A stretch of DNA of 64,000 nt from Candidatus Poribacteria bacterium (lineage in GTDB: Bacteria > Poribacteria > WGA-4E > WGA-3G). This document shows positions 6,155-61,636 of the stretch, piece by piece (the first letter of the stretch is position 1; the number at the start of each line of letters is the position of its first letter). The DNA is taken from assembly GCA_022828145.1 (NCBI GenBank), contig JAJEJA010000009.1:31254-95253 (forward strand). Direction: 5' to 3'. The translations under genes and the position numbers were made by a program. The notes under the pieces were generated by a model. It made no database searches, was not told where the DNA came from, and worked only from the letters and a program-made list of their open reading frames with translations.

Positions 6155-6183
6155 CGGTAGGTTCGGTTTCCTAACCGAACCGG
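6155..6183. repeat. Palindromic intergenic repeat family A (CGGTAGGTTCGGTTTCCTAACCGAACCGG)
   Basis: The same 29-30 nt hairpin element recurs at 18073, 18235 and four times at 42377-42594. Confidence 0.8.
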
Positions 6184-6218
6184 ACTATAAAGAAAATTAG
6201 CGATTGGATCAGTGGAAT

Positions 6219-6260
6219 CTTCCAGCCTTCCAGCCTTACTCCCTTCCAGCCTTCAACCTT
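6219..6260. repeat. Short tandem CTTCCAGCCTT-type repeats x3
   Basis: cttccagccttccagccttactcccttccagccttcaacctt. It shares the CTTCCA core with the octamer array at 11541. Confidence 0.6.
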
Positions 6261-6291
6261 TAAGTTTTATACACTAATTATTGAAAATAGT

Positions 6292-9348: not shown

Positions 9349-9507
9349 AGCCTCTCCCCCTATTGTTAGTGAAATGCAATACAGTTAGTCTCTAATGAAA
9401 ACCAAAGAAGATTACTGGAGCTGCGAAATTGCGATCTGTACCGTAGATCTCTATCTGATGTGAATTCTCTACGGCACAGAACACAGTGGACAGTTCAAGT
9501 CAAACTT

Positions 9508-9610
9508 GTAGGTCGGGTAGAGCGAAGCGCCAATAAAATATTAACTGGCGACATGATAGACACAATCAATACGTGTCGGGTTTCGTTCCTCTACCCGACC
9601 TACATTTTTT
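9508..9610. repeat. Inverted-repeat element family C (GTAGGTCGGGTAGAGGAACGAAACCCGACA) followed by a T-run
   Basis: Left arm gtaggtcgggtagag at 9508-9522; right arm tgtcgggtttcgttcctctacccgacctac at 9574-9603, then tttttt. The same family forms a perfect 35-bp inverted repeat at 59482-59575. Confidence 0.7.
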
Positions 9611-9642
9611 AGTCTGGACTATCCAATAGTCTATTGACAGTT

Positions 9643-42318: not shown

Positions 42319-42357
42319 GGGAAGTTTTTGCCACTCTATTTGTCTGAATCGCGGAGG
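42319..42357 (-). repeat. Inverted copy of the upstream module E (tccgcgattc(a/t)gacaaatagagtg(g)caaaaactt)
   Basis: Revcomp of 42320-42355 = tccgcgattcagacaaatagagtggcaaaaacttcc; this matches the 42839-42872 part of E1 at 34 of 35 aligned positions (one indel). Together they form roughly 40-bp inverted flanks around the repeat island. Confidence 0.75.
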
Positions 42358-42363
42358 ACGTGG

Positions 42364-42545
42364 TAATACCCCCAGGCCGGTAGGTTTGGTTTCCTAACCG
42401 AACCGGATTCTACGCGAAAACCTTAATACCCCAGGCCGGTAGGTTTGGTTTCCTAACCGAACCGGATTCTACGCGAAAACCTTAATACCCCAGGCCGGTA
42501 GGTTTGGTTTCCTAACCGAACCGGATTCTACGCGAGAACCTTTAT
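42364..42545. repeat. 59-bp tandem direct repeat x3, each unit containing a family-A-like hairpin (ccggtaggtttggtttcctaaccgaaccgg)
   Basis: Unit: taataccccaggccggtaggtttggtttcctaaccgaaccggattctacgcgaaaacct. The hairpin cores start at 42377, 42436 and 42495, giving a 59-bp period. The units are near-identical, so these are not CRISPR spacers. Confidence 0.85.
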
Positions 42546-42564
42546 AAACGCAAATGAAGCAAAG

Positions 42565-42594
42565 CCGGTTCGGTTGGGAAACCGAACCTACCGG
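42565..42594. repeat. Inverted family-A-like copy terminating the tandem array
   Basis: ccggttcggttgggaaaccgaacctaccgg is the revcomp of ccggtaggttcggtttcccaaccgaaccgg. Confidence 0.8.
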
Positions 42595-42634
42595 CCTGGG
42601 GAAATCTGATTTTTCAAACTCACGTTAAATATAG

Positions 42635-42780
42635 AAGCACAATCTAACAGAATGTGCTACGGCAGTGTGAAGATGGATGGTGTGGGGGGAAGGATAATGA
42701 TGGATGAAAGGGGTTGGAGGAAGAAGCACAATCTAACAGAATGTGCTACAAAGAAAGGCACAATCTAACAGAATGTGCTA
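42635..42780. repeat. Repeat family D: three copies of the hairpin AGCACAATCTAACAGAATGTGCTAC
   Basis: Copies at 42635-42660, 42725-42748 and 42757-42780. The stem is AGCACA/TGTGCT with an 11-nt loop. Copies 1 and 3 are followed by ggcagtgt(g/c)aag. Confidence 0.8.
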
Positions 42781-42837
42781 CGGCAGTGTCAAGTAGGTTA
42801 GGAACATGAGCCTCTTAAAATCCGCGAAATCTGTGAA

Positions 42838-42925
42838 ATCCGCGATTCTGACAAATAGAGTGCAAAAACTTTACACACCCCACCCGTATTATATTATTGA
42901 CACTCACAAATAGGTGTGGTAATAT
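42838..42925 (+). promoter_or_regulatory. Upstream module E1 plus sigma70 promoter for lnt-prfB
   Basis: atccgcgattctgacaaatagagtgcaaaaactttacacaccc (42838-42880), then TTGACA (42897-42902), 17-nt spacer, TAATAT (42920-42925). A near-identical module precedes the GGGPS gene at 57731. Confidence 0.6.
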
Positions 42926-42947
42926 TTCCATAAGTTTATTTGATCTT

Positions 42948-44528
42948 ATGGTAAGAACTTTGAGTTTTGTAAAACGTTATCGTTATCTACTTGCAGGCAG
43001 TTCAGGGATTCTCTTGTTTTGTAGTTTTCCTAATGTCAACTTCTTTCCACTGGCGTGGGTCGCATTAATTCCTTTATTAATCGCACTTGAGACGGGAGTG
43101 AGTCGGAAATCCTCATTTTTGATGGGGTACATAACAGGATTGGTTTTTTTCGCGGGTCTATTGTTAGCAATTGTTCTGCTATATCCTTATGCACACATCC
43201 TAACAACCTTACTCGGTTATACACTCTTAGTAGGTTATACTGCACTCTATTTTGCAGTCTTTGCAGTATTAGTCCATATTTTGCCATGGCGGACAGGCAT
43301 ATTATACCCTACTGCTGTCGCTTCAATCTGGGTTGGTTTAGAATGGATCAAAGGTTGGCTCTTAACCGGATTTCCGTGGGGGAATATCGGATATTCACAG
43401 TGGAACTTTGTTCAAGGAATTCAGATTGCATCTATCACCGGTGTTTACGGAATCAGCTTTATAGTTGTTTTCTTTAATGCAGGAATTGCGAAGTTAATCG
43501 TTAATATAGACAGATGGCGCGATGAACTGATAACTGTCATAGTGCCGTGTTTGTTAACGATAGTGTGTATTACCTACGGTTTTGTGGTCATAAATAGGCA
43601 TGATAATACAGAAAGCAGTCTACAGGTTGCGCTTGTACCTGGTAATATCTCACAACTTGAGAAATGGCAAAGATCGAATTTTCCAAGAATATTCGCAAAG
43701 TACCTCAACTTGTCAAAAAAAGCTGCGTTAAAAAAACCGGATATAATTGTCTGGCCTGAGACCGCTGTAAGCGGAGATGTGTTATCAGGCAAATTACCAA
43801 ACTACAACAAACGCTTTAAGGAATTCCAAGTGCAGATCGGGAACATACCTATGCTTATCGGAGCGACTGATCTTGATGCATACAACGATCTTTACAACCG
43901 TGTCATATCGGTATCTTCTGACAGTGAGATCGTTGGCAAATATGCGAAAATGCACCTCGTGCCGTTTGGAGAGTATGTACCATTAGCTGACTTTTTACCA
44001 AACTTTATCCAATTTCAACCTTATGAACACGGCAAGACGTTAGATACGTTACCAATTGTAAATGTTCAGCAACCAAAAGATGGCAATTTAAAGGTTGGAA
44101 CATCAATATGCTTCGAATCGGCGTTTCCAAATCATTTTCGCAAGTTCGTGAAAAAGGGGGCAGATGTAATGGGGATTCTGACCAACGATGCTTGGTTTAT
44201 CGGAACTGCATTCCCTGAACTTCACTTAGCAATGGCACCGATGCGGGCAGTAGAGAACAGAATCGCTGTTTTCAGATGTGCAAATGGAGGATATACATGT
44301 GTCGTTGACAAGTATGGAAGAATAAAAAGACCGATGGTAACACCCCAACAAACAGAAGACCAATTCATAAACGCGGAAATAGATCTTAAAGAAGGAAACC
44401 AGACACTTTACACACGCTATGGCGATTGGTTACCTATTCTCTGTGTCGTGTTTTCTATCGTCAGTTTAACAGCAGTACGAATACTCGGTTTAATCTCATC
44501 AATAACGCAATCAACGAAATCAAAATAA
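42948..44528 (+). CDS. lnt: Apolipoprotein N-acyltransferase
   Basis: Polytopic N-terminal region plus a C-terminal CN-hydrolase domain (...IIVWPETAV..., ...CFESAFP...). Start ATG 42948 was chosen because the track start at 42897 lies inside the promoter. Confidence 0.8.
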   Translation: MVRTLSFVKRYRYLLAGSSGILLFCSFPNVNFFPLAWVALIPLLIALETGVSRKSSFLMGYITGLVFFAGLLLAIVLLYPYAHILTTLLGYTLLVGYTALYFAVFAVLVHILPWRTGILYPTAVASIWVGLEWIKGWLLTGFPWGNIGYSQWNFVQGIQIASITGVYGISFIVVFFNAGIAKLIVNIDRWRDELITVIVPCLLTIVCITYGFVVINRHDNTESSLQVALVPGNISQLEKWQRSNFPRIFAKYLNLSKKAALKKPDIIVWPETAVSGDVLSGKLPNYNKRFKEFQVQIGNIPMLIGATDLDAYNDLYNRVISVSSDSEIVGKYAKMHLVPFGEYVPLADFLPNFIQFQPYEHGKTLDTLPIVNVQQPKDGNLKVGTSICFESAFPNHFRKFVKKGADVMGILTNDAWFIGTAFPELHLAMAPMRAVENRIAVFRCANGGYTCVVDKYGRIKRPMVTPQQTEDQFINAEIDLKEGNQTLYTRYGDWLPILCVVFSIVSLTAVRILGLISSITQSTKSK

Positions 44529-44540: not shown

Positions 44541-45636
44541 ATGCTATCAGACTATAAATCAGAAATAGATAGGATTACGATTCAACTACAAGAACTCAGG
44601 GGGTTTCTTTGACCTGCCAACAAAACAGCAAGAGTTGGTTGAACTTGAGAAAGAAGCATTGAAACCAGATTTCTGGGCAAACTCCCAACAGGTGCAAAAA
44701 GTAAATCAACGGATATCTTTTCTCAAAGATGAAATTGGTGAATATGAAAAAGTAGCAGGTTTAGTTGAAGATTTACAAACCTTATTGGAGCTTGCCATTG
44801 AAGAAAACGACAACAGTTTTGAACCTGAAATTGAAAGCGGATTAAAGGAAGTTACCGCACAGTTAGAGAAAATCGAATTGCGATTGATGCTGAACGGTGA
44901 GTTTGACCATAACAACGCAATACTGAACATCCATCCAGGCGCAGGCGGCGTTGATGCACAGGATTGGGCAGGGATGCTGATGCGAATGTATCTGCGTTGG
45001 TGCGACCAACATAGCTACACTTCCGAAATAGCAGATATCACTCCTGGGGACGAAGCAGGAATTAAAGGTGCAACTATTTTTGTCAGCGGTCCATCAGCTT
45101 ATGGATACCTTCAAGCTGAATCTGGGGTTCACCGACTGGTTCGGTTATCCCCTTTCGACTTCAACAAACGACGACACACCTCTTTTGCAGCAGTCCATGT
45201 TACCCCCGAAATTGATGACAGTGTTGAAGTAGAAATCAGTACTGAAGACCTACGTATTGATACGTTTCGTGCAAGCGGTGCAGGTGGGCAACATGTGAAT
45301 GTAACAGACTCTGCTGTCCGTATTACGCACAAACCAACGGGCATAATGGTGCAGTGTCAGAATGAACGTTCTCAACACAAGAATAGAGAAATTGCCATGA
45401 AGGAAATGCGTTCTCGATTGTATCTGTTCTATCGCGCACAACGTGATGAGGAAATTGCCAAACTACAACCTGAACGTAGAAATATCGACTTTGGAAGCCA
45501 AATCCGATCTTATGTCTTGCATCCGTATCAACGTGTGAAAGATACGAGAACTAACATTGAAACAGGAAACGTTGATGCTGTCTTGAACGGGGATTTAGAT
45601 GCCTTTATAGAGGGTTATTTGAAAACAAAACCATAA
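44541..45636 (+). CDS. prfB: Peptide chain release factor 2, expressed via a programmed +1 ribosomal frameshift at CUU UGA C (44607-44613)
   Basis: Frame 0 reads MLSDYKSEIDRITIQLQELRGFL, then TGA (44610-44612). The +1 frame continues DLPTKQQELVELEKEALKPDFW... through the RF2 body (SPFD, GGQHVNVTDSAVRITHKPTG). An AGGGGG SD-like element lies 3 nt upstream of CUU, as in E. coli prfB. Confidence 0.9.
44598..44613 (+). promoter_or_regulatory. RF2 autoregulatory frameshift site (AGGGGG UUU CUU UGA C)
   Basis: Seen directly in the sequence. The +1 frame is confirmed by continuity with the 44635..45636 ORF (offset 24 nt). Confidence 0.9.
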
Positions 45637-49481: not shown

Positions 49482-50186
49482 ATGGACACATTAATTACAA
49501 TTGACAATTTACACAAATCCTTTTATGATGGTGACTCAGAATTAAAAGTACTGAAAGGAGTCAATCTTGACATCTACACGTCTGAAATCCTTTCAATCAT
49601 GGGGGCATCGGGAGTAGGAAAGAGCACGCTATTACATATTTTAGGCACACTTGACCGTCCAACTTCGGGTAGTATATTATATGAAGATGAAGACATTACG
49701 ACATTCTCAGAACGGCAGTTGGCATCATTTCGGAATAACGCCATCGGTTTTGTCTTTCAATTTCATCAGCTACTCCCTGAGTTTACCGCATTAGAAAACG
49801 TTGCAATGGGGAGACTCATTAAGATATCCAAGCGAAATAAATCCAGAGATACTGATTTAAATAACAACAGTACCTATCAAGACGCGCAACGACTCCTTGA
49901 AGATGTTGGGCTTGCAGAACGATTAGACCATTATCCAAGCCAACTCTCTGGTGGAGAAAGACAACGTGTCGCTATAGCAAGAGCATTAATAAATCAACCA
50001 AAAGTCGTTCTTGCTGACGAACCAACCGGGAATATAGACGACAAAACCAGTCAAGCAGTCCTAAATGTCTTACAAAAAATAAATGAACGATTGCAACAGA
50101 CTTTTATTATAGTAACACATGATTCACGTTTGGCTGAACGAGCTGACAGAACGGTAGAACTTGTAGATGGAAAAATTGCAGACTAA
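49482..50186 (+). CDS. lolD: ABC transporter ATP-binding protein (LolD-like)
   Basis: 234 aa with Walker A GASGVGKST, signature LSGGERQRVAIARAL and Walker B VLADEPTG. Confidence 0.8.
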   Translation: MDTLITIDNLHKSFYDGDSELKVLKGVNLDIYTSEILSIMGASGVGKSTLLHILGTLDRPTSGSILYEDEDITTFSERQLASFRNNAIGFVFQFHQLLPEFTALENVAMGRLIKISKRNKSRDTDLNNNSTYQDAQRLLEDVGLAERLDHYPSQLSGGERQRVAIARALINQPKVVLADEPTGNIDDKTSQAVLNVLQKINERLQQTFIIVTHDSRLAERADRTVELVDGKIAD

Positions 50187-50220
50187 GTACAATTGAATAA
50201 GTGTAGAGGAAGGAATAGTA

Positions 50221-51108
50221 ATGTTGGTTTATATTGATGGAGCATATTTATCACCAGAGGATGCTAAAATTTCTGTATTTGACCACGGATTACTCTATGG
50301 AGACGGTGTATTTGAAGGTATTCGTTGCTATAACGGTAATGTTTTTATGCTGGATGAACACTTAGAAAGACTTTATGATTCAGCCAAATCAATCATGTTG
50401 GAAATACCAATAGCAATAGATGCTATGAAGCATAATGTCCTTGAAACGCTCCGCAGAAATCAACTCCGTGAAGGTTATATCAGATTAATTGTCACACGAG
50501 GAATAGGCGATTTAGGACTTGACCCAGAGAAATGTCCTAACCCATCAGTCGTTATCATTGCCGACAGAATTCAATTGTATCCAGAAAAATACTATGAAGA
50601 CGGTTTGGAAATAGTCACGGTCTCTGTAAGAAGGAATTACCCTGAAGCAATCAATCCACGTGTTAAATCTCTCAATTATCTAAATAACATTCTTGCAAAG
50701 ATTGAAGCAAAACAGTCTGGTGCAGTAGAGGCATTGATGCTCAATAATGACGGGTATGTTGTTGAATGTAGTGGTGATAACATCTTTCTGGTTAAAGACG
50801 AGATCATAATCACACCACCGTCGCATATCGGGATATTGGAAGGTGTTACCCGTAATACCGTAATTTCGCTCGCTCATGAAGCAGGATTTCAGGTAGAAGA
50901 ACGCGTCTTCACGCGACATGATATATACATTGCAGATGAATGTTTCCTGACTGGTACTGCAGCTGAAGTCATTCCAGTCGTAAAACTCGATAGAAGAGTT
51001 ATCGGAGAAGGAAAACCAGGGATCGTTACACAAAAGTTAATTGCAGCATTTAGACATCTCGCGAACAACTTCGGAACACCTATATTTGCTTGTGAAGAAA
51101 AGGAATAA
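50221..51108 (+). CDS. Class IV (fold-type IV) aminotransferase (branched-chain amino acid / D-amino acid aminotransferase family)
   Basis: 295 aa; ...DHGLLYGDGVFEGIRCYNG... and the overall IlvE/Dat pattern. Confidence 0.7.
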   Translation: MLVYIDGAYLSPEDAKISVFDHGLLYGDGVFEGIRCYNGNVFMLDEHLERLYDSAKSIMLEIPIAIDAMKHNVLETLRRNQLREGYIRLIVTRGIGDLGLDPEKCPNPSVVIIADRIQLYPEKYYEDGLEIVTVSVRRNYPEAINPRVKSLNYLNNILAKIEAKQSGAVEALMLNNDGYVVECSGDNIFLVKDEIIITPPSHIGILEGVTRNTVISLAHEAGFQVEERVFTRHDIYIADECFLTGTAAEVIPVVKLDRRVIGEGKPGIVTQKLIAAFRHLANNFGTPIFACEEKE

Positions 51109-51155
51109 TAAAAACTTAGCACCTCTTGCACACTAACAGTATAAGGAGCAAAAAA

Positions 51156-53594
51156 ATGAAACATAAGAAAAATTCAACAATAGCAAGTTTCATAAGTATA
51201 GTCTGCATAACAGCAGCATTATTGTTTATTCAGAGTCTTGTTAGTTTCGGTCAATCATCTCAAACACCATTTGGACCGCAACCTGAAAAAGAAGAGACAC
51301 AGGCTGATCAAGCAGTTGTTAAACAGAAAGAATCCATACCTATAGACAATACGCTTATTGTAACAAAGATTGACTTCAACGGTGTGCAATCGCTTCGTAA
51401 AGAGATGCTCCAGACGCTCATTCAAACAAAAATTGGACAAGAAATAGCTGAAGATTTACTCACGAAAGATATTGAAAGCCTATATAAGGATACAGGATTC
51501 TTCTACGATTTGAAAGTTGATGTATCAAAAAACGAAGAAGACGGCGGTATCGCGGTAACCTATATCCTATACGAGAGTCCGAAAATAGAGGGCATCAGTA
51601 TTATTGGAAACGATGAAATTGGCATCGGCAAAATCATGGATAGAATTACTTTGCGCCGTTCAGAGATATATAATGATCACCTACGATGGCAAAGTGAAAG
51701 AGCAATTCGGAAACTATACCATGAAAAAGGATACTATCTTGTCAGTATACAGGTTCACAACGACGTCAATGAAGAAGACAATACCAGTCAAGTTACTTTT
51801 GAGATCAACGAAGGTCCACGTGTGAGGATTACAGAGATCAACTTCATAGGGAATGACCAACTTTCCGCAAAAAAACTACGAAAAAAAATGAAGACGCGGG
51901 TTGGCAAACATTATGATGAATTGCTTTTTGAAGAAGAAGATATGAACTTAAGCCTACGCAACTATTATCAGGACCAAGGTTTTTCACAAGTGAAGATACT
52001 CGGACATGAAAAACGCTTTACGGAAGACAAAACAGGTCTAATACTTGATATAACTGTTGATGAAGGGTCGCAGTTTGTATTAGGTAATTACAGTATTGAA
52101 CTCCAAACGGGTGACAAAGTCATCTTTTCTGAAGAAAAAATCAAGAATATGTTAGACCCAGCAGAAGGGGAAGTTTTCAATCGCGCTATCTTTGAGGAGT
52201 CTATAGCAAAATTACAGCAGGCATATCTGGATAAGGGTTACTTACTTGCCGAAGTGGATCCAATTCCGCTCTTCGACGAGGAAAACGCACTCGTAGACAT
52301 CACCTTGAATATTAACCAGGGTGATGTTATAATTATAGACAATGTACCCATCACGGGTTTGGAAAAGACAAAAGAGAGAATCATAAGACGGGAGCTGGAT
52401 TGGCTCAACATCAAATCAGATGAACTACTTGATGTTAAAGTGCTGCGAAAAGCACGACAACGCCTTTTCCAGATGGGGCCTTTTATACGCGCTGTTGATT
52501 TCGTACCAAGCGACACAGAAAATGACAGCAGGAAGAGTTTAGTCGTCAATATCGCAGAATCACCTACGACAGGAACCCTCAGTGTCGGTGGTGGATACGG
52601 AAGTGAAGGTGGTATCTTCGGGACAGCTGAAATAGGACAACACAATTTTCTTGGACGCGCATACCGTATGCATTTGAAAGGAGAACTTGGAACAAGAGAC
52701 CACCATACAGCTGAATTTAGTTTCGGGTCGCCATGGATCTTCGGGACACCCACGAGACTTAATGCACGCATTTACAATAATCGCAGATTCAGACGATATT
52801 ACAGCAACGTTGGTGCCGCATTAAATCCGGATTATACAACAGACAGATATGTGTGGGATACACGAGGTGGATCCATTTCTCTGGGACGTCCAATCGCGTA
52901 TGATATCGACCTTTCTGTAAGGTTCAGGAATGAAAACATTAGGGCACACACGCCAGACAGAGAAGTGTTAAATCGTTCTACAAGAAGCATCCTATTCGCA
53001 GTAGGACGGGACACCCGAGATTACCGCACATCGCTTTACGACCCCATGGGCGGAAGTTCTAACAGTATATCTTATGAATACTCTGGAGGAATCTTGGGGG
53101 CTGATAACGAATTCCAAAAATACACTGCTGACACAAGTTGGTTCTTCAATCCGTGGTGGAATCATGTACTTGCGATTCATGCACGGGCAGGTTATATGGT
53201 CAGTAAGAGCACAGATAGTAGAAACCTATTTTACGAAAGATTTTACTTAGGGGGCGTAGATACAATACGCGGATACGAAGATTGGGAAATATATCCTGAT
53301 TCCGATAGTCCATTCAGGGAATTTGGGGGAAACAAAGTGTTTTTCTCTAACTGGGAATACAGAGTTCAAGTTTCTCCACAGTTGACAACAGCAGTTTTCT
53401 TTGATATCGGTCAAGTGTGGGATGAATCTACCCCAAACATTTTCAATAACATCAATCTGAAACGTGGTGCCGGTGTTGAAGCACGTTTACAGATGTTAGG
53501 GATGTTAGCACGCTTTGGATGGGGATATGGGTTTGACCGACAGAATCGGGCACCTCAAGGCAAATTCTATTTTACAATCGGCCCCGGCTTTTAG
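51156..53594 (+). CDS. bamA: Outer membrane protein assembly factor BamA
   Basis: About 810 aa with a signal peptide, multiple POTRA repeats and a C-terminal Omp85 barrel. It sits in the conserved bamA-skp-lpxD order. Start chosen at the ATG with an AAGGAG SD. Confidence 0.85.
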   Translation: MKHKKNSTIASFISIVCITAALLFIQSLVSFGQSSQTPFGPQPEKEETQADQAVVKQKESIPIDNTLIVTKIDFNGVQSLRKEMLQTLIQTKIGQEIAEDLLTKDIESLYKDTGFFYDLKVDVSKNEEDGGIAVTYILYESPKIEGISIIGNDEIGIGKIMDRITLRRSEIYNDHLRWQSERAIRKLYHEKGYYLVSIQVHNDVNEEDNTSQVTFEINEGPRVRITEINFIGNDQLSAKKLRKKMKTRVGKHYDELLFEEEDMNLSLRNYYQDQGFSQVKILGHEKRFTEDKTGLILDITVDEGSQFVLGNYSIELQTGDKVIFSEEKIKNMLDPAEGEVFNRAIFEESIAKLQQAYLDKGYLLAEVDPIPLFDEENALVDITLNINQGDVIIIDNVPITGLEKTKERIIRRELDWLNIKSDELLDVKVLRKARQRLFQMGPFIRAVDFVPSDTENDSRKSLVVNIAESPTTGTLSVGGGYGSEGGIFGTAEIGQHNFLGRAYRMHLKGELGTRDHHTAEFSFGSPWIFGTPTRLNARIYNNRRFRRYYSNVGAALNPDYTTDRYVWDTRGGSISLGRPIAYDIDLSVRFRNENIRAHTPDREVLNRSTRSILFAVGRDTRDYRTSLYDPMGGSSNSISYEYSGGILGADNEFQKYTADTSWFFNPWWNHVLAIHARAGYMVSKSTDSRNLFYERFYLGGVDTIRGYEDWEIYPDSDSPFREFGGNKVFFSNWEYRVQVSPQLTTAVFFDIGQVWDESTPNIFNNINLKRGAGVEARLQMLGMLARFGWGYGFDRQNRAPQGKFYFTIGPGF

Positions 53595-53693
53595 TCCATA
53601 TCATTTTATCAGAAAACTACAGATAATCTACTGACAGTGAGTTGGTAGAAATTACATAACGAACATTTATGTGTTGTTCAAAAAGGAATAATT

Positions 53694-54257
53694 ATGAAAA
53701 AGTTTGTACTAACAGTATTTTCTTTAGTGTTGTTCGGGATTTTGACCGGCAGCATCGGTCAAGAGTCATTTAAACTCGGTGTCGTTGATTCCAATCGTGT
53801 TCTGCAAAACTATAAGAAGGCTATGGACGCAGACAAATTCATAAAGAATGCGGACGCACGTTTGAAGAAGAATCTTGATGACATGGCAGAAGACATTAGG
53901 ACATTGATCGAAAAGAAAGAGAAGACTGAGCTATTTGTTGAAGAGGCACAAACAGCAGAATTAGTAAAACAGATTCAAGACAAACAGTTGGAATTTCAGA
54001 GAGAACGTGAGCAGGGAACTCAAGCACTATATGAGAAAAACAGAGAATTGATGCAGCCGATTTTCAAGGAACTTGAGCAACTCATTATTAAAACCGGAAA
54101 AGATGAAAACTACGATCTGATAATTGACAAACAAGCTGCACTCTATTTTAATGAAAAGTATGATATTACTGACAAACTTATTATTCTGATAAATGCAGAA
54201 AACGAAAAAGCCGAACAGAATAATCAGGATGTTGAAGCACCGCAAAAAAATGAATAG
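53694..54257 (+). CDS. skp: Periplasmic chaperone Skp/OmpH
   Basis: 187 aa with a signal peptide and K/E-rich coiled-coil. Its position between bamA and lpxD fits the conserved order. Confidence 0.8.
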   Translation: MKKFVLTVFSLVLFGILTGSIGQESFKLGVVDSNRVLQNYKKAMDADKFIKNADARLKKNLDDMAEDIRTLIEKKEKTELFVEEAQTAELVKQIQDKQLEFQREREQGTQALYEKNRELMQPIFKELEQLIIKTGKDENYDLIIDKQAALYFNEKYDITDKLIILINAENEKAEQNNQDVEAPQKNE

Positions 54258-54264
54258 GAATATT

Positions 54265-54365
54265 AATAGTAGTAGGCACACTCCGATGTGCCGTTTTTGC
54301 ATAGTAGTAGGCACACTCCGATGTGCCGTTCTGGCATAGTAGTAGGCACACGCCGTGTGCCGTCA
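54265..54365. repeat. Repeat family B x3 in tandem after skp
   Basis: Three copies of (a)atagtagtaggcacac(t/g)ccg(a)tgtgccg. The first is followed by a T-run, so it is terminator-like. Confidence 0.8.
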
Positions 54366-54417
54366 GATGATACCTTGATATTGTAAGATTTCACCTGTTT
54401 CAATGAGGAAACTATAT

Positions 54418-55473
54418 ATGAAACTAAAGCATATTTGTGAACATATTGGTGGCGAACTTCATGGGGATGGTGAGATTGAAATAACTGGTGTTTCTGGCAT
54501 TAAAGAAGCAGTTCCGAACCAAATTACCTTCGTAGCAAATACAAAATATCTGAGTGCAATCGCAACTACCCAAGCATCGGCAATAATCTTAGGACACGGT
54601 GTTTCTGGCAACGGGAAAGCCACAATCAGTGTTGACAACCCATATTGGGGATTTGTAAAGGTCTTGGAATTATTTGCACAGGGAACAGAGAGAAAACAAC
54701 AGGCCGGTATACACGAAACAGCGATTATTGGAGAGAATGTTAAAATCGGCAAAAATGTCTCTATACATGCACACTGTGTCTTAGAAGACAATGTGGAAAT
54801 TGGTGATAATACAGTAATTATGCCTTTAGTTTATATTGGAGAGGGAAGCAAAATTGGATGTGATGGTTTAATATACGCCAATGTAAGTATTCGGGATAAT
54901 ATCATTATTGGCGATCGTGTCATTATTCATTGCGGTGCTGTAATTGGTAGTGACGGATTCGGGTTTACGCCTGACCCCACAAACCATAGTCCATATAAAA
55001 TTCCACAAATAGGTTCTGTCGTTATTGAAGACGATGTTGAAATCGGGGCAAATACAACAATTGATAGAGCGACAATTTCTGAAACGCTGATAAAAAACGG
55101 AACAAAACTTGATAACCTCGTTCAGATTGCACACAATGTAGTTATTGGAAAAGATTGCTGTTTAGCAGCGCAAACAGGTATTGCAGGAAGTAGTCAATTA
55201 GGTGACCGTATAAACATGGCAGGTCAATCTGGTGTCATCGGACACCTAACGCTTGGCGAAAACACCGTCATCTACTCAAAAACGGCTGTCACAAAAGATA
55301 TCCCACCTGGAAGTCATCTTTCTGGTATTCCCGCCCGACCCCATAAACAGGAGTTACGTTTTCAAGCATCAATCAGAAAAATGCCAGAATTATTAAAAGA
55401 GTTTAATAAACTGCAAAAACGTGTCGTGGAGCTTGAAGAAAAACTACACGAACTCGGAAATGAGAATACTTAG
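54418..55473 (+). CDS. lpxD: UDP-3-O-(3-hydroxyacyl)glucosamine N-acyltransferase
   Basis: Left-handed beta-helix hexapeptide repeats throughout, LpxD N-terminal domain, and a position after skp. Confidence 0.85.
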   Translation: MKLKHICEHIGGELHGDGEIEITGVSGIKEAVPNQITFVANTKYLSAIATTQASAIILGHGVSGNGKATISVDNPYWGFVKVLELFAQGTERKQQAGIHETAIIGENVKIGKNVSIHAHCVLEDNVEIGDNTVIMPLVYIGEGSKIGCDGLIYANVSIRDNIIIGDRVIIHCGAVIGSDGFGFTPDPTNHSPYKIPQIGSVVIEDDVEIGANTTIDRATISETLIKNGTKLDNLVQIAHNVVIGKDCCLAAQTGIAGSSQLGDRINMAGQSGVIGHLTLGENTVIYSKTAVTKDIPPGSHLSGIPARPHKQELRFQASIRKMPELLKEFNKLQKRVVELEEKLHELGNENT

Positions 55474-55552
55474 AAAATTCCTATCTACATCACCTTGAAA
55501 CAAGAAAGAACTTAACACATTCCTGTTAACTCCAGATAGACACAATCAGAGG

Positions 55553-56407
55553 TTGACAATGCGGACGTTGTTAACGTATGTTGAACTTGCCAGGCCTTTG
55601 AACGGTGTGATCGCATTTATTTCTACTTGGTTAGGTGGCATATTCGCGATAGGCAGCACACTCAATTCATTTTTAGAAGTAAAGTTATTATATGTTTCTA
55701 TTGCCTCACTGTTACTACTCTCCGCAGGCAATGCAATAAATGATTATTGTGATTATAACATTGATTGCCATAACAGGCCTGATCGTCCACTCCCTTCAGG
55801 TAGAATCCGTAGAAGAAATGCACTAATATTCGCCATAACGCTTATCGGACTCGGTATTGCACTTGGTGTGTTAGTTAATCTATATGCGGTTTTTGTAGCA
55901 ATATTGGTGTCTATGCTTCTCGTGAGCTATGCTCTCATTCTAAAACGTACACCTATCTTAGGAAATTTGGTTGTCGGTATTCTTACAAGTCTGACGTTCA
56001 TTTCTGGTGGCATAGCAGTCGGTTCAGTACATAGCACCATCATACCTGCTATTTTTGCCTTTCTATTTACAACAGCAAGGGAGATTGTCAAAGACCTTGA
56101 GGATATTGAAGGAGATAAAAGAGAAAACATCAAGACACTTGCCAATCTCAATCCGCGTCTGGCAATCATCATGGCATTGAGTTTTATGTTCTCTGTGATC
56201 ATATTTAGTCCTATTCCCTATCTGCTTGGACTTTATCCGTGGCAATATTTGGTGACAATCTTACTTGGCGTTGATCTTGTCCTTATCTGCTTGGGAATTC
56301 AGCTCGTGAAGAACGTCTCAAAAGACGGTTATGCAAAAATACAACGGTGGATGAAATGGGACATATTCGTAGGTTTAGGTGCAATCTATTTTGGGATCAT
56401 ATATTGA
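55553..56407 (+). CDS. UbiA-family prenyltransferase, digeranylgeranylglyceryl phosphate synthase-like
   Basis: 284 aa, polytopic. NAINDYCDYNIDCHNRPDRPLPSGRI closely parallels the archaeal DGGGPS motif [21 protein letters not shown]. A second Asp-rich motif KDLEDIEGD is present. Confidence 0.65.
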   Translation: MTMRTLLTYVELARPLNGVIAFISTWLGGIFAIGSTLNSFLEVKLLYVSIASLLLLSAGNAINDYCDYNIDCHNRPDRPLPSGRIRRRNALIFAITLIGLGIALGVLVNLYAVFVAILVSMLLVSYALILKRTPILGNLVVGILTSLTFISGGIAVGSVHSTIIPAIFAFLFTTAREIVKDLEDIEGDKRENIKTLANLNPRLAIIMALSFMFSVIIFSPIPYLLGLYPWQYLVTILLGVDLVLICLGIQLVKNVSKDGYAKIQRWMKWDIFVGLGAIYFGIIY

Positions 56408-56446
56408 CAAAAGGGAACGACGATTCATTTCTCGTCGGAATAGATA

Positions 56447-57679
56447 GTGAAAGACTACACCAAAGTGATAGAGTTCTTAAACAGCACGACACCAAACATT
56501 GAGCATGCACTTCGCTTTATAAATACCTCTCAAACTTCATCCTTAACAGACGAATTGCTTAAAACCTGCAAGGTGTTCGCGTCAGGATGGAGACAGATTG
56601 ACGGTGTAATGTTGATGAGACAGATGGAAGGGCATGATTCTGATTATCGTATCCTTGTAAGTGCAACTACTGAAAGAAGTCTAAGGGAACTACTCCTCAC
56701 TTTTCCAAGAAGTTCAGTTGGAATGTTTTACCTGACAAACGATTGGATTGAAAGCAGAGTACTGGATCTGTTTGATGGTGAGAAGGTTAGTGTAGGATCA
56801 GAGGTATGTTTCGTTGGCACAAAAAAAGGCGGTACTACAGCAGCAGAACAGAAGACATTGAATAAAAAGAAAGATGCAATCAACAGTAATCTTGGTCATC
56901 TAACATCCATAAAGGGTAGATTCGAGAATTCTCAGTTTCTTATTGAAGGGGAAATGATGGTAGAACGCGCTTTCTCCGATGGATTACCTATTGAAAACGT
57001 GCTTTATACAAACGAATTTGTTGCGTCTGCTGCAGGTAGAGATTTTTTGATGAAAGTTTTTGCCGAAAATCTATCAATATATCTAACAAGAGATAGCCTG
57101 ATGGGTTCACTAACAACCACTCGTCCGATTCCCTCGATTATAGTATCCGTGCATCTAAATTATCCTACATTCTTAGATAAGGATGGATGTATGAATTTTC
57201 ATTTTAGTCAAGACTGTATACTGCTGATAATTGAAAACGTTCAGAATCCTGACAATCTTGGGATGACGTTACGCACGGCTGATGCTGCAGGTGTTTCCGC
57301 AGTACTGATAAGTGGAGAAGGGGCAAATCCGTTTCATAAAAACTGTATCCGTGCATCGCGTGGTGCTGTTGGTAGGATTCCCATTTTCTATGTTCCTTCA
57401 ACGAAACCAGCGATCGAGAAACTCAAAGCAAGCGGTTGGCATATCATCGGAGCAACAGCAAAGACAGAAAAGGAGCTTTACACATCGACTTATGAGAAAC
57501 CGATTGCAGTTGTTGTTGGTAATGAGCATAGTGGTTTAACAGAGGAGACGCGAAACCATTGTACAGAATTAGTCAGTATACCCATGGCAACGGGTCAATC
57601 CTCTCTGAATGTTGGCGTTGCTACCGGGATTCTACTATATGAATTAAACGCTAATCCTGTGAAAGTAAACCTGAGATGA
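56447..57679 (+). CDS. SPOUT (TrmH/SpoU-family) RNA 2'-O-methyltransferase with an N-terminal extension of roughly 160 aa of unknown function
   Basis: The C-terminal 250 aa carry the SpoU pattern (...LLIIENVQNPDNLGMTLRTADAAGV..., ...VVVGNEHSGL..., ...SLNVGVATGILLYEL). Confidence 0.65.
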   Translation: MKDYTKVIEFLNSTTPNIEHALRFINTSQTSSLTDELLKTCKVFASGWRQIDGVMLMRQMEGHDSDYRILVSATTERSLRELLLTFPRSSVGMFYLTNDWIESRVLDLFDGEKVSVGSEVCFVGTKKGGTTAAEQKTLNKKKDAINSNLGHLTSIKGRFENSQFLIEGEMMVERAFSDGLPIENVLYTNEFVASAAGRDFLMKVFAENLSIYLTRDSLMGSLTTTRPIPSIIVSVHLNYPTFLDKDGCMNFHFSQDCILLIIENVQNPDNLGMTLRTADAAGVSAVLISGEGANPFHKNCIRASRGAVGRIPIFYVPSTKPAIEKLKASGWHIIGATAKTEKELYTSTYEKPIAVVVGNEHSGLTEETRNHCTELVSIPMATGQSSLNVGVATGILLYELNANPVKVNLR

Positions 57680-57730
57680 GCCAGAACACCTTCCGCGTCT
57701 TCCGTGCCAGCTATGTTAACTGGCGCGTCA

Positions 57731-57818
57731 TCCGCGATTCTGACAAAAGGGTGCCGAATAACTTTACACACCCACTATATTATAAGAATTTGACAAATTC
57801 GTCCGATGGTGTTAAAAT
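57731..57818 (+). promoter_or_regulatory. Upstream module E2 plus sigma70 promoter for the GGGPS gene
   Basis: tccgcgattctgacaaaagggtgccgaataactttacacaccc (57731-57773), then TTGACA (57790-57795), 17-nt spacer, TAAAAT (57813-57818). Confidence 0.55.
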
Positions 57819-57891
57819 AATTTAGTTTTGATATATAATCGTGTAAGTAAATTCCCGCAAGGATCAATGACATTTTGACAGTAAGGACCGG

Positions 57892-58644
57892 TTGCAATTG
57901 AGATCAAATTGTATTCTAAGATATCTAAAAACAGTAATTAAAGAAAAGGACGCAGGATACTTCATCTTGATTGATCCGGAAATGTGTGATGTAGAAAAGA
58001 CTGCAAAACTCGCCACTACCATAGAGAACGCAGGTGCAGATGCAATTCTACTTGGGGGTAGTCTATTGACCCAAGAATTAGATCCAATTGCCGCCTCTAT
58101 CAAGGCAGAAACCGAGTTGCCAATTATTCTATTCCCTGGCGATTCCATGCATCTCACACCGCATGCAGACGCACTCCTGTTTATGAGTCTCATCAGTGGA
58201 CGAAACCCAAACTATCTTATCGGGGAACAGGTAAAAGCAGCACCATGGATCCAGAAATATGGATTAGAACCCATACCAACGGGGTACATGTTGATTGATG
58301 GTGGGAGCAGAACCTCAGTAGAATTCATGAGTGGCACCGTTCCTATTCCGAGAGACAAACCTGACATCGCTGCACCCCATGCCCTGGCAGCAGAATACCT
58401 CGGTATGCAGATGGTCTATCTGGAAGCAGGAAGTGGGGCAACACTCCCTGTGCCAAACGCGATGATTTCTGCTGTGAAAGAACAGATCACAACACCATTG
58501 ATTGTGGGGGGAGGCATAAGATCGCCTGAAACAGCAGCTGAAAAAGTAAGAGCAGGAGCAGATTTCATAGTCACGGGTAACATACTTGAAGAAACAGGTT
58601 CTATTGACCTTATCAAACAGTTTGCCATCGCAATTCATGGTTAA
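57892..58644 (+). CDS. Geranylgeranylglyceryl/heptaprenylglyceryl phosphate synthase family (GGGPS/PcrB)
   Basis: 250 aa; ILIDPE..., ...YLEAGSGA..., ...IVGGGIRSPETAAEKVRAGADFIVTGN... match PcrB/GGGPS (compare B. subtilis PcrB FKLDP, YLEYSG, FYGGGIKD). Confidence 0.75.
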   Translation: MQLRSNCILRYLKTVIKEKDAGYFILIDPEMCDVEKTAKLATTIENAGADAILLGGSLLTQELDPIAASIKAETELPIILFPGDSMHLTPHADALLFMSLISGRNPNYLIGEQVKAAPWIQKYGLEPIPTGYMLIDGGSRTSVEFMSGTVPIPRDKPDIAAPHALAAEYLGMQMVYLEAGSGATLPVPNAMISAVKEQITTPLIVGGGIRSPETAAEKVRAGADFIVTGNILEETGSIDLIKQFAIAIHG

Positions 58645-58712
58645 CTATTGCAAATGACTTACCCTAAGAATATAATTTGAAAACAATCATTTAGAACGTG
58701 AGGAATTACATT

Positions 58713-59441
58713 ATGTCAGAAAACAGAGAGGTAGTTATTGAAATTGGAACTGAAAACGATAAATCTGATTCTGAGACTTTTGCAACACCAGATGATTCTG
58801 ACAATACTACCGAGATAGAAAATAAGAATGACGAACCTACTGTAGAAACATTGCTTGCAGAAATTGAAGAACTCAAAGAATCTTTCAAAAAACAGATTGA
58901 GGAAGTTGCAGAATCAGAGAGAGCACAATATGAAACTGAACGGGAACGCTTGTTGCGCACCGCTGCAGAAGCTGAAAATACAAAAAGACGTGTTGAAAAC
59001 GATGCTAAGAAGCAGCTAAAATTTGCAAATAAGAATATCATAGAAGGAATTATTCCTGTATTGGATAGCCTTGAAGCAGCAATTAATAGCACTGATGAAA
59101 AGGTTGAAACTGAAGAACATAATCCAGATATGTCTAACTTCAGTGAGGGCGTAGAATTAGTACATAAGCAACTATTAGATGTTCTAAGATCACATGGACT
59201 TACGCCAATAGACTCTGCAAGTGGTTCATTTGATCCAAACCAGCATGAAGCTGTCTTTGCAACAGAATCAGATGAAGTACCAGAGGGGAATATAATTGAG
59301 GAATTCAGACGAGGATATCTGCTGCATGAACAAGTGATCCGTGCCGCACAAGTTGTCGTGTCAACGGGAAAGAAAAAGGAAGAACCCTCCGATGAAGTAA
59401 CCGAAGAAATCATAATCGAAATTTCAACTGAGGAAGAATAA
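58713..59441 (+). CDS. grpE: Nucleotide exchange factor GrpE
   Basis: 243 aa with an acidic N-terminus, coiled-coil and the C-terminal GrpE domain (...IDSASGSFDPNQHEAV...). Confidence 0.85.
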   Translation: MSENREVVIEIGTENDKSDSETFATPDDSDNTTEIENKNDEPTVETLLAEIEELKESFKKQIEEVAESERAQYETERERLLRTAAEAENTKRRVENDAKKQLKFANKNIIEGIIPVLDSLEAAINSTDEKVETEEHNPDMSNFSEGVELVHKQLLDVLRSHGLTPIDSASGSFDPNQHEAVFATESDEVPEGNIIEEFRRGYLLHEQVIRAAQVVVSTGKKKEEPSDEVTEEIIIEISTEEE

Positions 59442-59481
59442 ATGTAATACCAAATCTAATTGATTAATTAACATTATTGTC

Positions 59482-59575
59482 TTTTCGTAGGTCGGGTAGA
59501 GGAACGAAACCCGACATGGAAGTCTTTATCTAATCCTACGTGTCGGGTTTCGTTCCTCTACCCGACCTACGAAAA
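59482..59575. repeat. Perfect 35-bp inverted repeat (family C) with a 24-nt spacer, between grpE and dnaJ
   Basis: ttttcgtaggtcgggtagaggaacgaaacccgaca ...24 nt... tgtcgggtttcgttcctctacccgacctacgaaaa. Each arm also contains an internal gtcgggt/acccgac hairpin. Confidence 0.85.
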
Positions 59576-59624
59576 TAATACTATATAATCATTTAGAAAT
59601 GGTATAACTTAGGTAGGAAAACAC

Positions 59625-60734
59625 ATGGAACAAAAACGCGACTATTATGATGTTTTGAACGTCAGCAGAGATGCAGATGAGAACGAAATTAAAAAAGCAT
59701 ATAGAAAATTAGCAATAAAATATCATCCAGATAAAAATCAAGGTGATAAAGACGCCGAAGACAAATTCAAAGAAGCCGCCGAAGCTTATGACGTGTTGAG
59801 AACACCAGAAAAACGACAGCGATATGACCAATATGGACATGCTGGACTTGAAGGGACAACATCCGGATACGGGTATGGCGTAAACCTTGACGATATATTG
59901 AGTGAGGTGTTTGGAGACGTATTAGGGGGTTTTGGAAGAACAAGCAATAGACCCAAACCGGGACGGAGCATACCGTATAACCTTGAAATCACACTTGAGG
60001 AAGCATATTACGGTAAGGAGGAAACAATTGAAATACCCCGAATTGAATCTTGTCCTGATTGTAACGGCAGTGGCGCAGAAAGAGGATCAACTATTGATAC
60101 GTGTCCTCAGTGCTATGGACAGGGACAAGTAACACAATCACAAGGTTTCTTTACAATGTCCCGAACATGTCCACGATGCCATGGAGAAGGTAAAATTATC
60201 AAGAACCCATGCAGAAACTGTAACGGACAAGGTAGAATAAGAGTCAAAAAAGAACTCAAGATAAAAATAGATAAAGGTGTTGACAACGGTACTAAGTACA
60301 GCTTGCGTGGACAGGGTGAAGCAGGTACTTTAGGAGGACCCCCCGGAGACCTACTGGTTGTAATCCACATAAAGCCACACCAAACTTTCGTCAGAGAGGG
60401 AAACGATTTATATACTTATGCAAAAATTTCGTTCATCCAAGCAGCACTTGGAACTACTATTGAAGTTAAAAGTATTGATGGTGTGCAGGAATTAGATGTG
60501 CCAGCAGGAACACAATACGGAGACCAATTGCACATTAAAGGGAAGGGAATGCCAAGATACAGAAGTTCTTATTACGGCGACCTTGTTGTTCAGATAGAGA
60601 TAGAAACACCAAGAAAACTCACGGCACAACAGAGAACACTGTTAGAACATTTTGATGCCCCTGAGTATAAACCTGACGGATCTGAGAACAGTAGTTTCTG
60701 GGAAAAACTTTTTGGCAATCCAGATGATAAGTAG
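59625..60734 (+). CDS. dnaJ: Molecular chaperone DnaJ
   Basis: 369 aa with a J domain (HPD), G/F region, four CxxCxGxG zinc-finger repeats and the C-terminal domains. Confidence 0.9.
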   Translation: MEQKRDYYDVLNVSRDADENEIKKAYRKLAIKYHPDKNQGDKDAEDKFKEAAEAYDVLRTPEKRQRYDQYGHAGLEGTTSGYGYGVNLDDILSEVFGDVLGGFGRTSNRPKPGRSIPYNLEITLEEAYYGKEETIEIPRIESCPDCNGSGAERGSTIDTCPQCYGQGQVTQSQGFFTMSRTCPRCHGEGKIIKNPCRNCNGQGRIRVKKELKIKIDKGVDNGTKYSLRGQGEAGTLGGPPGDLLVVIHIKPHQTFVREGNDLYTYAKISFIQAALGTTIEVKSIDGVQELDVPAGTQYGDQLHIKGKGMPRYRSSYYGDLVVQIEIETPRKLTAQQRTLLEHFDAPEYKPDGSENSSFWEKLFGNPDDK

Positions 60735-60751
60735 TCAATTCTTACTGAAAA

Positions 60752-61636
60752 ATGAAATGGATACAGATTACAATAAAAACATCTCATGAAGCATCTGAAG
60801 CCGTGGCAAATCAATTATTTGAAATGCGGTCACTCGGTGTTGAGATAACTGAAGACAACAAAAATGGTACACTATTAACTGCATATTTCCCGCTGGATGA
60901 CAAAATCAATTCAAAAGTTAACACACTAAGAACCTTCCTGTCAAAACTACCGGCATGGGGAATCCAACCGAATCCAGCAAAAATTGAACTAAAAAGAATT
61001 GAGTCAGAAAAATGGACAGAAGCGTGGAAGGCAAATTTCACACCTCAAAAAGTAGGAGAAAAGATACACATCGTTCCAACATGGTATGAACAACCTATCA
61101 ATGAATCAGACATCGTAATAAGACTTGATCCTGGCATGGCGTTTGGCACAGGTTACCATCCAACAACACGATTATCTCTACAAATGTTGGAGAAAGCGAT
61201 CAGACCGAATCAGATTGTGGCAGATGTAGGAACTGGCTCTGGTATTTTAGCAATTGCTGCTATCAAACTGGGGGCGAAACATATTGACGCGATCGAACTT
61301 GACCCGACAGCAATACCAGTAGCAATGACCAATTTCGCTAATAACAGTGTCTCAAAAAAAATCACATTACATGAAGCAGATGGGCTCCGGACTGTTAAAC
61401 GAAAATACGATCTTATAGTCGCAAACATCCTAACAAAAGCGATCATACCATTGATTCCATACTGTCGTGATAGATTAAATTCTGATGGAAGCCTAATCTT
61501 ATCCGGTATTCTGGAATCAGAACAGGCCGACGTTCAAGAGACTTTAAAAGAAAACGGTTTAGAATGCGTTTCTGTTACACGGCAAGCAGAGGATAAACTA
61601 ATGTGGGTAGCAATGTTAGCGAGATTCCTTTGCTAA
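60752..61636 (+). CDS. prmA: Ribosomal protein L11 methyltransferase
   Basis: 294 aa with the PrmA N-terminal domain and the SAM-MTase motif VADVGTGSGILAIAA. The dnaJ-prmA adjacency is common. Confidence 0.8.
   Translation: MKWIQITIKTSHEASEAVANQLFEMRSLGVEITEDNKNGTLLTAYFPLDDKINSKVNTLRTFLSKLPAWGIQPNPAKIELKRIESEKWTEAWKANFTPQKVGEKIHIVPTWYEQPINESDIVIRLDPGMAFGTGYHPTTRLSLQMLEKAIRPNQIVADVGTGSGILAIAAIKLGAKHIDAIELDPTAIPVAMTNFANNSVSKKITLHEADGLRTVKRKYDLIVANILTKAIIPLIPYCRDRLNSDGSLILSGILESEQADVQETLKENGLECVSVTRQAEDKLMWVAMLARFLC

Follow-up and report, generated by a model that had tools for sequence, protein, structure and literature searches.

A 64,000-nucleotide stretch of the genome of a sponge-associated Candidatus Poribacteria bacterium (assembly GCA_022828145.1, contig JAJEJA010000009.1, positions 31,254 to 95,253 of the forward strand; hereafter the window, with positions counted from its first letter) carries on its plus strand two prenyltransferase genes of archaeal lipid type. 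One is a UbiA-family gene resembling digeranylgeranylglyceryl phosphate synthase (DGGGPS) at 55553..56407, and the other is a PcrB-family gene for a predicted group II geranylgeranylglyceryl phosphate synthase (GGGPS) at 57892..58644. Our reading, to which we give a probability of roughly 0.6, is that Poribacteria possess a group II GGGPS that is functional and a UbiA enzyme of DGGGPS type, which would together make archaeal-type diether lipids. From the genes we infer the enzyme activities, the C20 chain length, the stereochemistry of the glycerol phosphate, the membrane-lipid product and any functional tie to lipid A or outer-membrane biogenesis. In the proposed pathway, GGGPS, a soluble TIM-barrel enzyme, would attach the geranylgeranyl group of geranylgeranyl diphosphate (GGPP) to glycerol phosphate at its C3 hydroxyl, and the membrane-embedded UbiA enzyme would add the second geranylgeranyl group to yield digeranylgeranylglyceryl phosphate (DGGGP). 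Ordinary bacterial CdsA and PgsA-type enzymes could then convert DGGGP to archaeal-type diether phospholipids, as happens with the Cloacimonetes enzymes in E. coli, and the ferredoxin and geranylgeranyl reductase (GGR) of earlier-branching relatives would saturate the chains.

Identity of the two prenyltransferase genes

By comparison with curated models and solved structures, the PcrB-family gene is securely identified as a group II GGGPS. Its product passed all three curated models (PF01884, 171 bits against a cutoff of 23.9; TIGR01769, 232.4 against 161.55; NF003198, 299.7 against 247), whereas on NF003197, the model of heptaprenylglyceryl phosphate synthase with a cutoff of 260, it reached only 36 bits. 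Among solved structures, it matched the group II enzymes of Methanothermobacter thermautotrophicus (4MM1, 191 bits) and Flavobacterium johnsoniae (4JEJ, 178 bits) as well as 6NKE (166 bits), versus 40 bits for the group I enzyme of Archaeoglobus fulgidus (2F6U) and 34 bits for the PcrB structures of Bacillus and Staphylococcus. The GGGIRS and YLEAGSG motifs on which an earlier note on this DNA had relied are present in a gene on the same strand as the UbiA gene, and the Bacillales heptaprenyl type, which that note had kept in view, is disfavored by 34 bits as against 191 bits to the archaeal group II enzyme. The probable start is the second TTG, at 57898, giving a protein of 248 amino acids (aa), and this start codon is conserved in the alignment of relatives.

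Aligned to 4MM1, the best solved-structure match, the window protein retains GY with its Tyr, YLEAGSG with its Tyr and Glu, and, as phosphate loops, GGGIRS and VTGN; the conserved Tyr/Tyr/Glu and phosphate loops determine the catalysis and stereospecificity of GGGPS (PMC9385802). The VTG loop ends in Asn in the window protein, whereas Thr occupies this position in the M. thermautotrophicus enzyme and in a deep poribacterial clade. Furthermore, at the aromatic anchor W141 the window protein has a Phe, from which a hexameric GGGPS is predicted. Such an anchor is typical of hexamers, whereas bacterial group II enzymes such as that of F. johnsoniae are described as non-hexameric (PMC9385802). The F. 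johnsoniae enzyme (group IIb) is like the window protein in being a bacterial group II GGGPS, although the latter scores slightly higher on the archaeal enzyme. PcrB of Bacillus subtilis belongs to the same Pfam family, PF01884, and sets the precedent of a bacterium with an ether lipid enzyme of archaeal type, but it is of group I, uses a C35 substrate and has no DGGGPS partner. The nearest non-poribacterial GGGPS proteins, 54-57% identical, come from Marinimicrobia, Zixibacteria, Ignavibacteria, KSB1, Gemmatimonadota and one Terriglobales metagenome-assembled genome (MAG).

The case for identifying the UbiA-family gene as a DGGGPS, built on family models and a solved structure, is strong. The open reading frame (ORF) contains the DGGGP-synthase-type motif that had been claimed for it, NAINDYCDYNIDCHNRPDRPLPSG. 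Its probable start is the ATG at 55559, which gives 282 aa, the length of a 100%-identical database protein (P0121). In addition to PF01040 (146 bits), its top NCBIfam matches were the DGGGPS models NF009521 (218.5 bits), NF009523 (212.7 bits) and NF009522 (169 bits), compared with 91 bits for EboC, 76 for ChlG, 54 for UbiA, 46 for MqnP and at most 76 for CyoE. A MenA-, UbiA- or chlorophyll-synthase-like identity, the other outcome considered in the earlier note, is therefore not borne out. The best match in the PDB was the DGGGPS of Methanocaldococcus jannaschii (6M31), with 135 bits and an alignment spanning residues 3-281; chlorophyll synthase came next with 41 bits, and no PDB matches were found beyond these two. 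With 6M31 the window protein has the catalytic and substrate-binding motifs in common: N62/D66/D70, Y125…K130 and D180/D183/D187 (M. jannaschii numbering) are all conserved, and mutation of N62, D66, D70, Y125…K130, D180, D183 or D187 abolishes the activity of the M. jannaschii enzyme (PMC9385802). NCBI and Joint Genome Institute (JGI) annotation already names poribacterial homologs of this UbiA protein DGGGPS, and the nearest UbiA clusters at 50% identity are annotated DGGGPS, with one more of them from Poribacteria.

The same three DGGGPS scores lie under their equivalog cutoffs (296 for NF009521, 269 for NF009523 and 353 for NF009522), so that by this criterion the protein falls outside strict membership. 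Such scores would fit a UbiA enzyme that prenylates another acceptor, aromatic or quinone-type, with its co-occurrence with GGGPS coincidental; the specificity of UbiA-family enzymes is hard to infer from sequence, and novel UbiA aromatic prenyltransferases are described from marine bacteria in an excerpt of PMC9235831. We consider this very unlikely, given the distance between the DGGGPS models and all other UbiA subfamilies (218 bits versus at most 91), the full-length match to the M. jannaschii DGGGPS as the sole strong one in the PDB, the arrangement in the unclassified MAG L067, where the DGGGPS gene directly adjoins a fused ferredoxin::GGR gene followed by GGGPS, and the co-retention of UbiA with GGGPS even where the two genes are unlinked.

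Gene order and transcription units of the lipid locus

The two lipid genes lie in a plus-strand run at 42.9-61.6 kb that comprises lnt, prfB, lysS, a GNAT gene, a lolC/E-like gene, lolD, ilvE, bamA, skp, lpxD, UbiA, SpoU, PcrB/GGGPS, grpE, dnaJ and prmA. As the earlier note had described, bamA-skp-lpxD stands directly upstream of UbiA: bamA (51126..53594, outer membrane protein assembly factor with five POTRA domains and Omp85; TIGR03303, 400 bits against a cutoff of 297) and lpxD (54403..55473, UDP-3-O-acylglucosamine N-acyltransferase of the lipid A pathway; TIGR01853, 364.8 bits against 242.5; PF04613) score above the NCBIfam equivalog cutoffs, and the skp/OmpH periplasmic chaperone gene lies between them (53694..54257; PF03938, 85.5 bits). 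The spacing from lpxD to UbiA is about 80 nt, and about 1.48 kb separate the UbiA stop from the GGGPS start on the same strand. Neither fabZ nor lpxA occurred among the window ORFs scanned with Pfam. Downstream of GGGPS, grpE-dnaJ-prmA (58698..61636; Pfam GrpE, DnaJ and PrmA) are its conserved partners.

Homologs were scanned in one genome per species, and 20-kb loci around the matches (given L numbers here) were compared; GGGPS was present in 66 loci labelled Candidatus Poribacteria. The closest relative, JAJDZB010000064.1 (L001), has 91-100% protein identity over the whole block, with most genes at 99-100%. In the main clade, the median identity to the window was 77% for ilvE, 74% for GGGPS, 72% for lpxD, 65% for UbiA and for bamA, 62% for dnaJ, 56% for prmA and 51% for skp, and in a deeper poribacterial clade GGGPS (62%) and lpxD (61%) were again the best conserved. 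The UbiA motifs ND..D...D and D..D...D are intact in all 58 poribacterial loci and Y-x4-K in 57 of the 58, while Y.EAGSG and GGGI of GGGPS are intact in 66 of 67 loci. As judged from these alignments, which cover at least 58-66 poribacterial genomes, both lipid genes are as well conserved as their housekeeping neighbors and hence under purifying selection of housekeeping strength. They have diverged in step with these neighbors, as expected from vertical descent inside the phylum.

The order lolD-ilvE-bamA-skp-lpxD-UbiA-SpoU-GGGPS-grpE-dnaJ-prmA recurs in about 50 species-level genomes of Poribacteria, the deep clade included. Six loci have a GGGPS without an upstream UbiA partner within 10 kb, five without any upstream partner and one (L006) with a partial SpoU match. 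In one of the six, the complete 5.34-Mb chromosome OY282386.1 (L082/L050), the break in the block falls precisely at the SpoU-GGGPS boundary and the halves are 3.8 Mb apart: lolD…lpxD-UbiA-SpoU lies at 4.17 Mb and GGGPS-grpE-dnaJ-prmA at 0.39 Mb, and both lipid genes are kept (UbiA = P0170). A family-2 glycosyltransferase gene and a RecQ helicase gene follow SpoU in this chromosome. Wherever a poribacterial locus shows both lpxD and DGGGPS, the two remain adjacent. None of the loci from Marinimicrobia, Zixibacteria, Ignavibacteria, KSB1 and Gemmatimonadota has, within 10 kb of GGGPS, any of the neighbors found in the window or in its deep-branching relatives and L067.

That GGGPS has a consensus promoter of its own, as proposed earlier, was well supported. 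A sigma-70-type promoter (57790..57818, plus strand; TTGACA-17-TAAAAT with an extended -10 TG) matches 11 of 12 positions and is the best sigma-70-like site in the 9.6 kb from 50100 to 59700. Its core, ATTTGACAAA plus TGnTAnAAT, is invariant in relatives down to 73% GGGPS identity and conserved across the phylum, whereas the neighboring intergenic sequence is variable. The split point between SpoU and GGGPS in OY282386.1 fits this promoter evidence. Between lpxD and UbiA neither a terminator nor a promoter was predicted, and the UbiA-SpoU gap holds only a non-terminator hairpin. Based on the lack of such signals between lpxD and UbiA, on the promoter of GGGPS and on the split genome, we infer two units, lpxD-DGGGPS-SpoU and P-GGGPS(-grpE…), the first of which is probably co-transcribed. 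This two-unit arrangement is ancestral to Poribacteria. Thus, the proposal that the lipid genes are joined to the lpxD block holds for DGGGPS, at a distance of about 80 nt, but not for GGGPS, which has its own promoter and travels with grpE-dnaJ. A terminator-like hairpin between skp and lpxD (54275..54292, plus strand; GGCACACTCCGATGTGCC then GTTTTTGCAT) is weakly supported; in this region such sites were no more frequent than in shuffled sequence. Control of GGGPS by HrcA was considered and dropped, as no controlling inverted repeat of chaperone expression (CIRCE) operator lies near GGGPS or grpE and the sole weak match is at 42076.

The upstream module said to be common to GGGPS and lnt fared differently from the promoter. 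Its two copies are real: CCGCGATTCTGACAAA…AACTTTACACACCC occurs on the plus strand at 57732..57773, upstream of GGGPS, and at 42840..42880, upstream of lnt (42897-44528), with an exact 16-mer and 14-mer in common, and a partial inverted copy lies at 42339-42354. Its conservation, however, was not upheld: of 80 loci, only L001 has the exact box, and L003 has a near-copy. The module was therefore rejected as a conserved regulatory site, the promoter core being conserved instead. Limited as it is to the closest relatives, it looks like a lineage-restricted intergenic repeat rather than a shared regulatory element.

These features bear on whether the lipid genes adjoin bamA-skp-lpxD purely through historical gene order, without regulatory or functional meaning, and work independently of outer-membrane biogenesis, a reading for which we see a little less than an even chance. 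In its favor are the conserved promoter of GGGPS, the separation of GGGPS from the lpxD block in some genomes, the insertion of unrelated genes into gaps in several lineages, the presence of an RNA methyltransferase gene inside the block and the GGGPS loci of the five other phyla without such neighbors. It is opposed by the adjacency of lpxD and DGGGPS in every poribacterial locus showing both, by the lpxD-UbiA gap without a predicted terminator and by the recurrence of the adjacency in L067, where the genes from lpxD to GGGPS overlap or are separated by gaps of at most 10 nt.

The RNA methyltransferase gene between the lipid genes (56447..57679, plus strand; 410 aa; PF00588, 131.6 bits) encodes an RNA 2'-O-methyltransferase of TrmH/RlmB type. 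By its predicted domains, SpoU_methylase and an L30e-like substrate-binding domain, it is a SPOUT class TrmH/RlmB protein; the L30e-like domain scored 26.7 bits on PF22435, just below the cutoff of 27, and the protein also lies below the RlmB equivalog cutoff (136.9 versus 160.15). Residues ~134-402 align to complete TrmH-family enzymes (5KZK), leaving about 130 N-terminal residues extra. A Pfam search of the N-terminal 163 aa at E<=10 gave no match, and structure prediction returned a GNAT fold for residues 1 to ~130, followed by a disordered linker at 130-162. A SPOUT gene with an extra N-terminal domain therefore does lie between the lipid genes, as had been noted, but the domain, then called unexplained and put at 160 aa, is one of about 130 aa with a predicted GNAT fold.

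Several further features were seen around the locus. Upstream of lnt, a 24-nt unit, GCACAATCTAACAGAATGTGCTAC, an imperfect palindrome, is present in three exact copies at 42637-42781, where none is expected by chance, and the lnt upstream region also contains inverted-repeat-like sequence, ggtttcctaaccgaaccgg … ccggttcggttgggaaaccgaacc, at 42500-42600 of the window. The interval between grpE and dnaJ contains, at 59482-59575, a perfect 35-nt inverted repeat whose arms are 24 nt apart, and a third exact copy of its 29-nt core is found at 9575-9603 on the minus strand; this looks like a repetitive extragenic palindromic (REP)-like intergenic repeat family. A second Omp85-family protein of 629 aa with three POTRA domains, which may be a TamA-like paralog, is encoded on the minus strand at 11658-13547, 38 kb from bamA. 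The release factor 2 (RF2, prfB) ORF at 44635-45636 spans 333 aa from a TTG start, with the PCRF domain beginning at residue 3, and its N terminus may lie upstream in another frame, as in the usual programmed +1 frameshift. Scans of the window for tRNAs and for Rfam families both gave no match.

Ferredoxin and geranylgeranyl reductase in deep-branching relatives

Nine loci of the deep clade (L057-L064, L079) carry a 2x[4Fe-4S] ferredoxin ORF and a GGR gene between SpoU and GGGPS, and in deep-clade loci hrcA precedes grpE. The deep-clade GGR belongs to PF22578, and its top NCBIfam match, the Thermoplasmatales digeranylgeranylglycerophospholipid reductase, gave 195 bits, below the cutoff of that model. 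L067, whose GGGPS is 58% identical, has ten genes on one strand (124-10741) in the order bamA, skp, lpxD, deacetylase, second UbiA, polysaccharide pyruvyl transferase, a 552-aa protein without a Pfam match, DGGGPS, ferredoxin::GGR fusion and GGGPS, and its tight spacing makes this the most compact form of the cluster. From the genomes, the strongest case for a lipid pathway formed by the UbiA and PcrB proteins comes from the ferredoxin and GGR beside GGGPS, together with the L067 operon. By the account of Isobe et al. 2014 given in PMC7852524, Methanosarcina acetivorans requires a ferredoxin and GGR to saturate archaeol. The deep Poribacteria and L067 resemble that system in having a ferredoxin paired or fused with GGR beside GGGPS, but differ in that the pair is absent from the window's lineage and that, in the deep clade, the Cys codon of PVRCAEG is replaced by an in-frame UGA.

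The deep-clade GGR is a selenocysteine (Sec)-containing candidate. A single in-frame TGA occurs in all nine loci at the Cys of SPVRCAEG in the uninterrupted L067 homolog; in L059, for example, the gene spans 8747-9940 and the TGA lies at 8882-8884. The codons on either side show synonymous variation. At 16-33 nt downstream of the TGA lies a hairpin of 7 bp whose 3-nt loop contains G, with two compensatory pair changes in L057. A literature search found no paper linking Sec with GGR.

Between lpxD and DGGGPS, a polysaccharide deacetylase gene is found only in the deep clade and L067. A divergent second UbiA gene occupies the same interval in L059 (with the deacetylase, 3726-5770) and also in L020, L024, L028, L029, L035, L040 and L044, while fragments of it remain in L019, L033, L036 and L054; its best NCBIfam score is 59 bits. 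Neither a GGR nor the second UbiA was found in the 64-kb window. The presence of the second UbiA in part of the main clade and of fragments elsewhere implies secondary loss in the window's lineage, and the gene looks ancestral and repeatedly lost. The lpxD…DGGGPS run of L067 indicates a tie to lpxD older than the poribacterial radiation; the physical link to lpxD is ancient and, for DGGGPS, probably transcriptional.

These envelope genes bring in the possibility that the product is a minor or specialized prenyl-glycerol, serving as an anchor or carrier in the making of envelope or outer-membrane glycoconjugates or being dephosphorylated or acylated like the heptaprenylglycerol of B. subtilis, rather than a bulk phospholipid. 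The tie of DGGGPS to lpxD in all Poribacteria examined speaks for it, as do the deacetylase and second UbiA genes (deep clade and L067) and the pyruvyl transferase gene (L067) set between lpxD and DGGGPS in the same operon. In addition, PcrB of Bacillus serves a non-bilayer product, as an excerpt of PMC9179154 relates, and CarS was not found in the window. The GGR and ferredoxin beside GGGPS are, however, an archaeal membrane-lipid arrangement, the window GGGPS is of group II and not of PcrB type, and CarS is replaceable by bacterial CdsA (PMC7852524). On balance, we regard a specialized product as unlikely, though still worth considering. More doubtful still is the far-reaching proposal that an lpxD-led envelope operon ending in DGGGPS-ferredoxin/GGR-GGGPS was inherited by Poribacteria and their sister lineage L067, that saturated archaeal-type isoprenoid diethers serve Gram-negative envelope biogenesis in a non-FCB phylum, possibly in the outer membrane or a glycolipid, and that the deep-clade GGR is a Sec enzyme of a kind not described before.

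Missing pathway steps and comparison with other bacteria

Several observations weigh against diether lipid synthesis by the GGGPS-DGGGPS pair. In addition to the sub-cutoff scores of the UbiA protein, Pfam scans of the large ORFs of the 64-kb window found no glycerol-1-phosphate (G1P) dehydrogenase (G1PDH), GGPP synthase or CarS, and Poribacteria have no EgsA/AraM entry in a survey from 2016 (PMC5059525). The window's lineage lacks the ferredoxin-GGR pair at its lipid locus, having lost it, and a gene order seen in a single phylum could reflect inheritance rather than functional coupling. Furthermore, a 2026 preprint on the ether-lipid potential of sponge symbionts deals with elb, agps, ger, mss and tes in Poribacteria, not with the GGGPS/DGGGPS pathway. 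A Black Sea study found Tes homologs in 10 and Mss homologs in 14 of 29 poribacterial MAGs.

Compared with the archaeal core lipid pathway, the window genes stand in a bacterial genomic context, with no G1PDH or CarS seen there. The lack of a G1PDH known from Poribacteria (PMC5059525) would also agree with enzymes that salvage or catabolize archaeal lipids from co-resident sponge Thaumarchaeota, which are abundant in sponges according to an excerpt of PMC9289680; a reverse reaction in bacteria devoid of G1PDH was raised by Coleman et al. (PMC6431249). Nevertheless, prenyl transfer with release of pyrophosphate is effectively irreversible, the housekeeping-level conservation and strong constitutive-type promoter favor a biosynthetic role, and the neighboring GGR and ferredoxin likewise point to biosynthesis, so that we hold salvage to be extremely unlikely.

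Bacterial precedents for diether synthesis by such a pair come from the Fibrobacteres-Chlorobi-Bacteroidetes (FCB) group. The GGGPS and DGGGPS of Cloacimonetes make unsaturated archaeol-phosphatidylglycerol (archaeol-PG) in E. coli (Villanueva et al. 2021, PMC7852524), and the same study reports the GGGPS-DGGGPS pair from throughout the FCB group, from candidate phyla related to it and from a single Parcubacteria genome and states that a bacterial CdsA can stand in for CarS. Coleman et al. 2019 (PMC6431249) surveyed 12 FCB phyla; all of them had the pair, and just two had G1PDH. The Cloacimonetes and other FCB carriers are like the window in having a group II GGGPS and a DGGGPS-type UbiA beside normal bacterial lipid genes, and in both settings G1PDH and CarS are not evident and GGR occurs in relatives. 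Poribacteria differ from them as an independent candidate phylum outside the FCB group (NCBI taxonomy). Most of the closest GGGPS homologs from outside Poribacteria (54-57% identity) belong to FCB-type phyla. Poribacteria also differ in that DGGGPS is fixed directly after lpxD and GGGPS upstream of (hrcA-)grpE-dnaJ. Poribacteria are not named in PMC7852524 or PMC6431249 or in the supplementary material examined, and our literature search found no report of GGGPS/DGGGPS genes in this phylum. The pair in Poribacteria is thus a trait known from the FCB group that is already in automated annotation and apparently undiscussed in the literature.

Poribacteria are abundant in easily sampled sponges, and the lipid prediction is therefore testable. 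Among natural systems, bacteria that carry both GGGPS and DGGGPS are the leading candidates for mixed archaeal/bacterial membranes, and as such they are central to the lipid-divide debate on LUCA (the last universal common ancestor) and eukaryogenesis. Until now, the case has been built on the FCB group and on a small number of candidate phyla. To these, Poribacteria would add a separate phylum in which the pair is phylum-wide, and the fixed place beside lpxD and the ferredoxin and GGR genes of the older branches offer genomic evidence of joint function.

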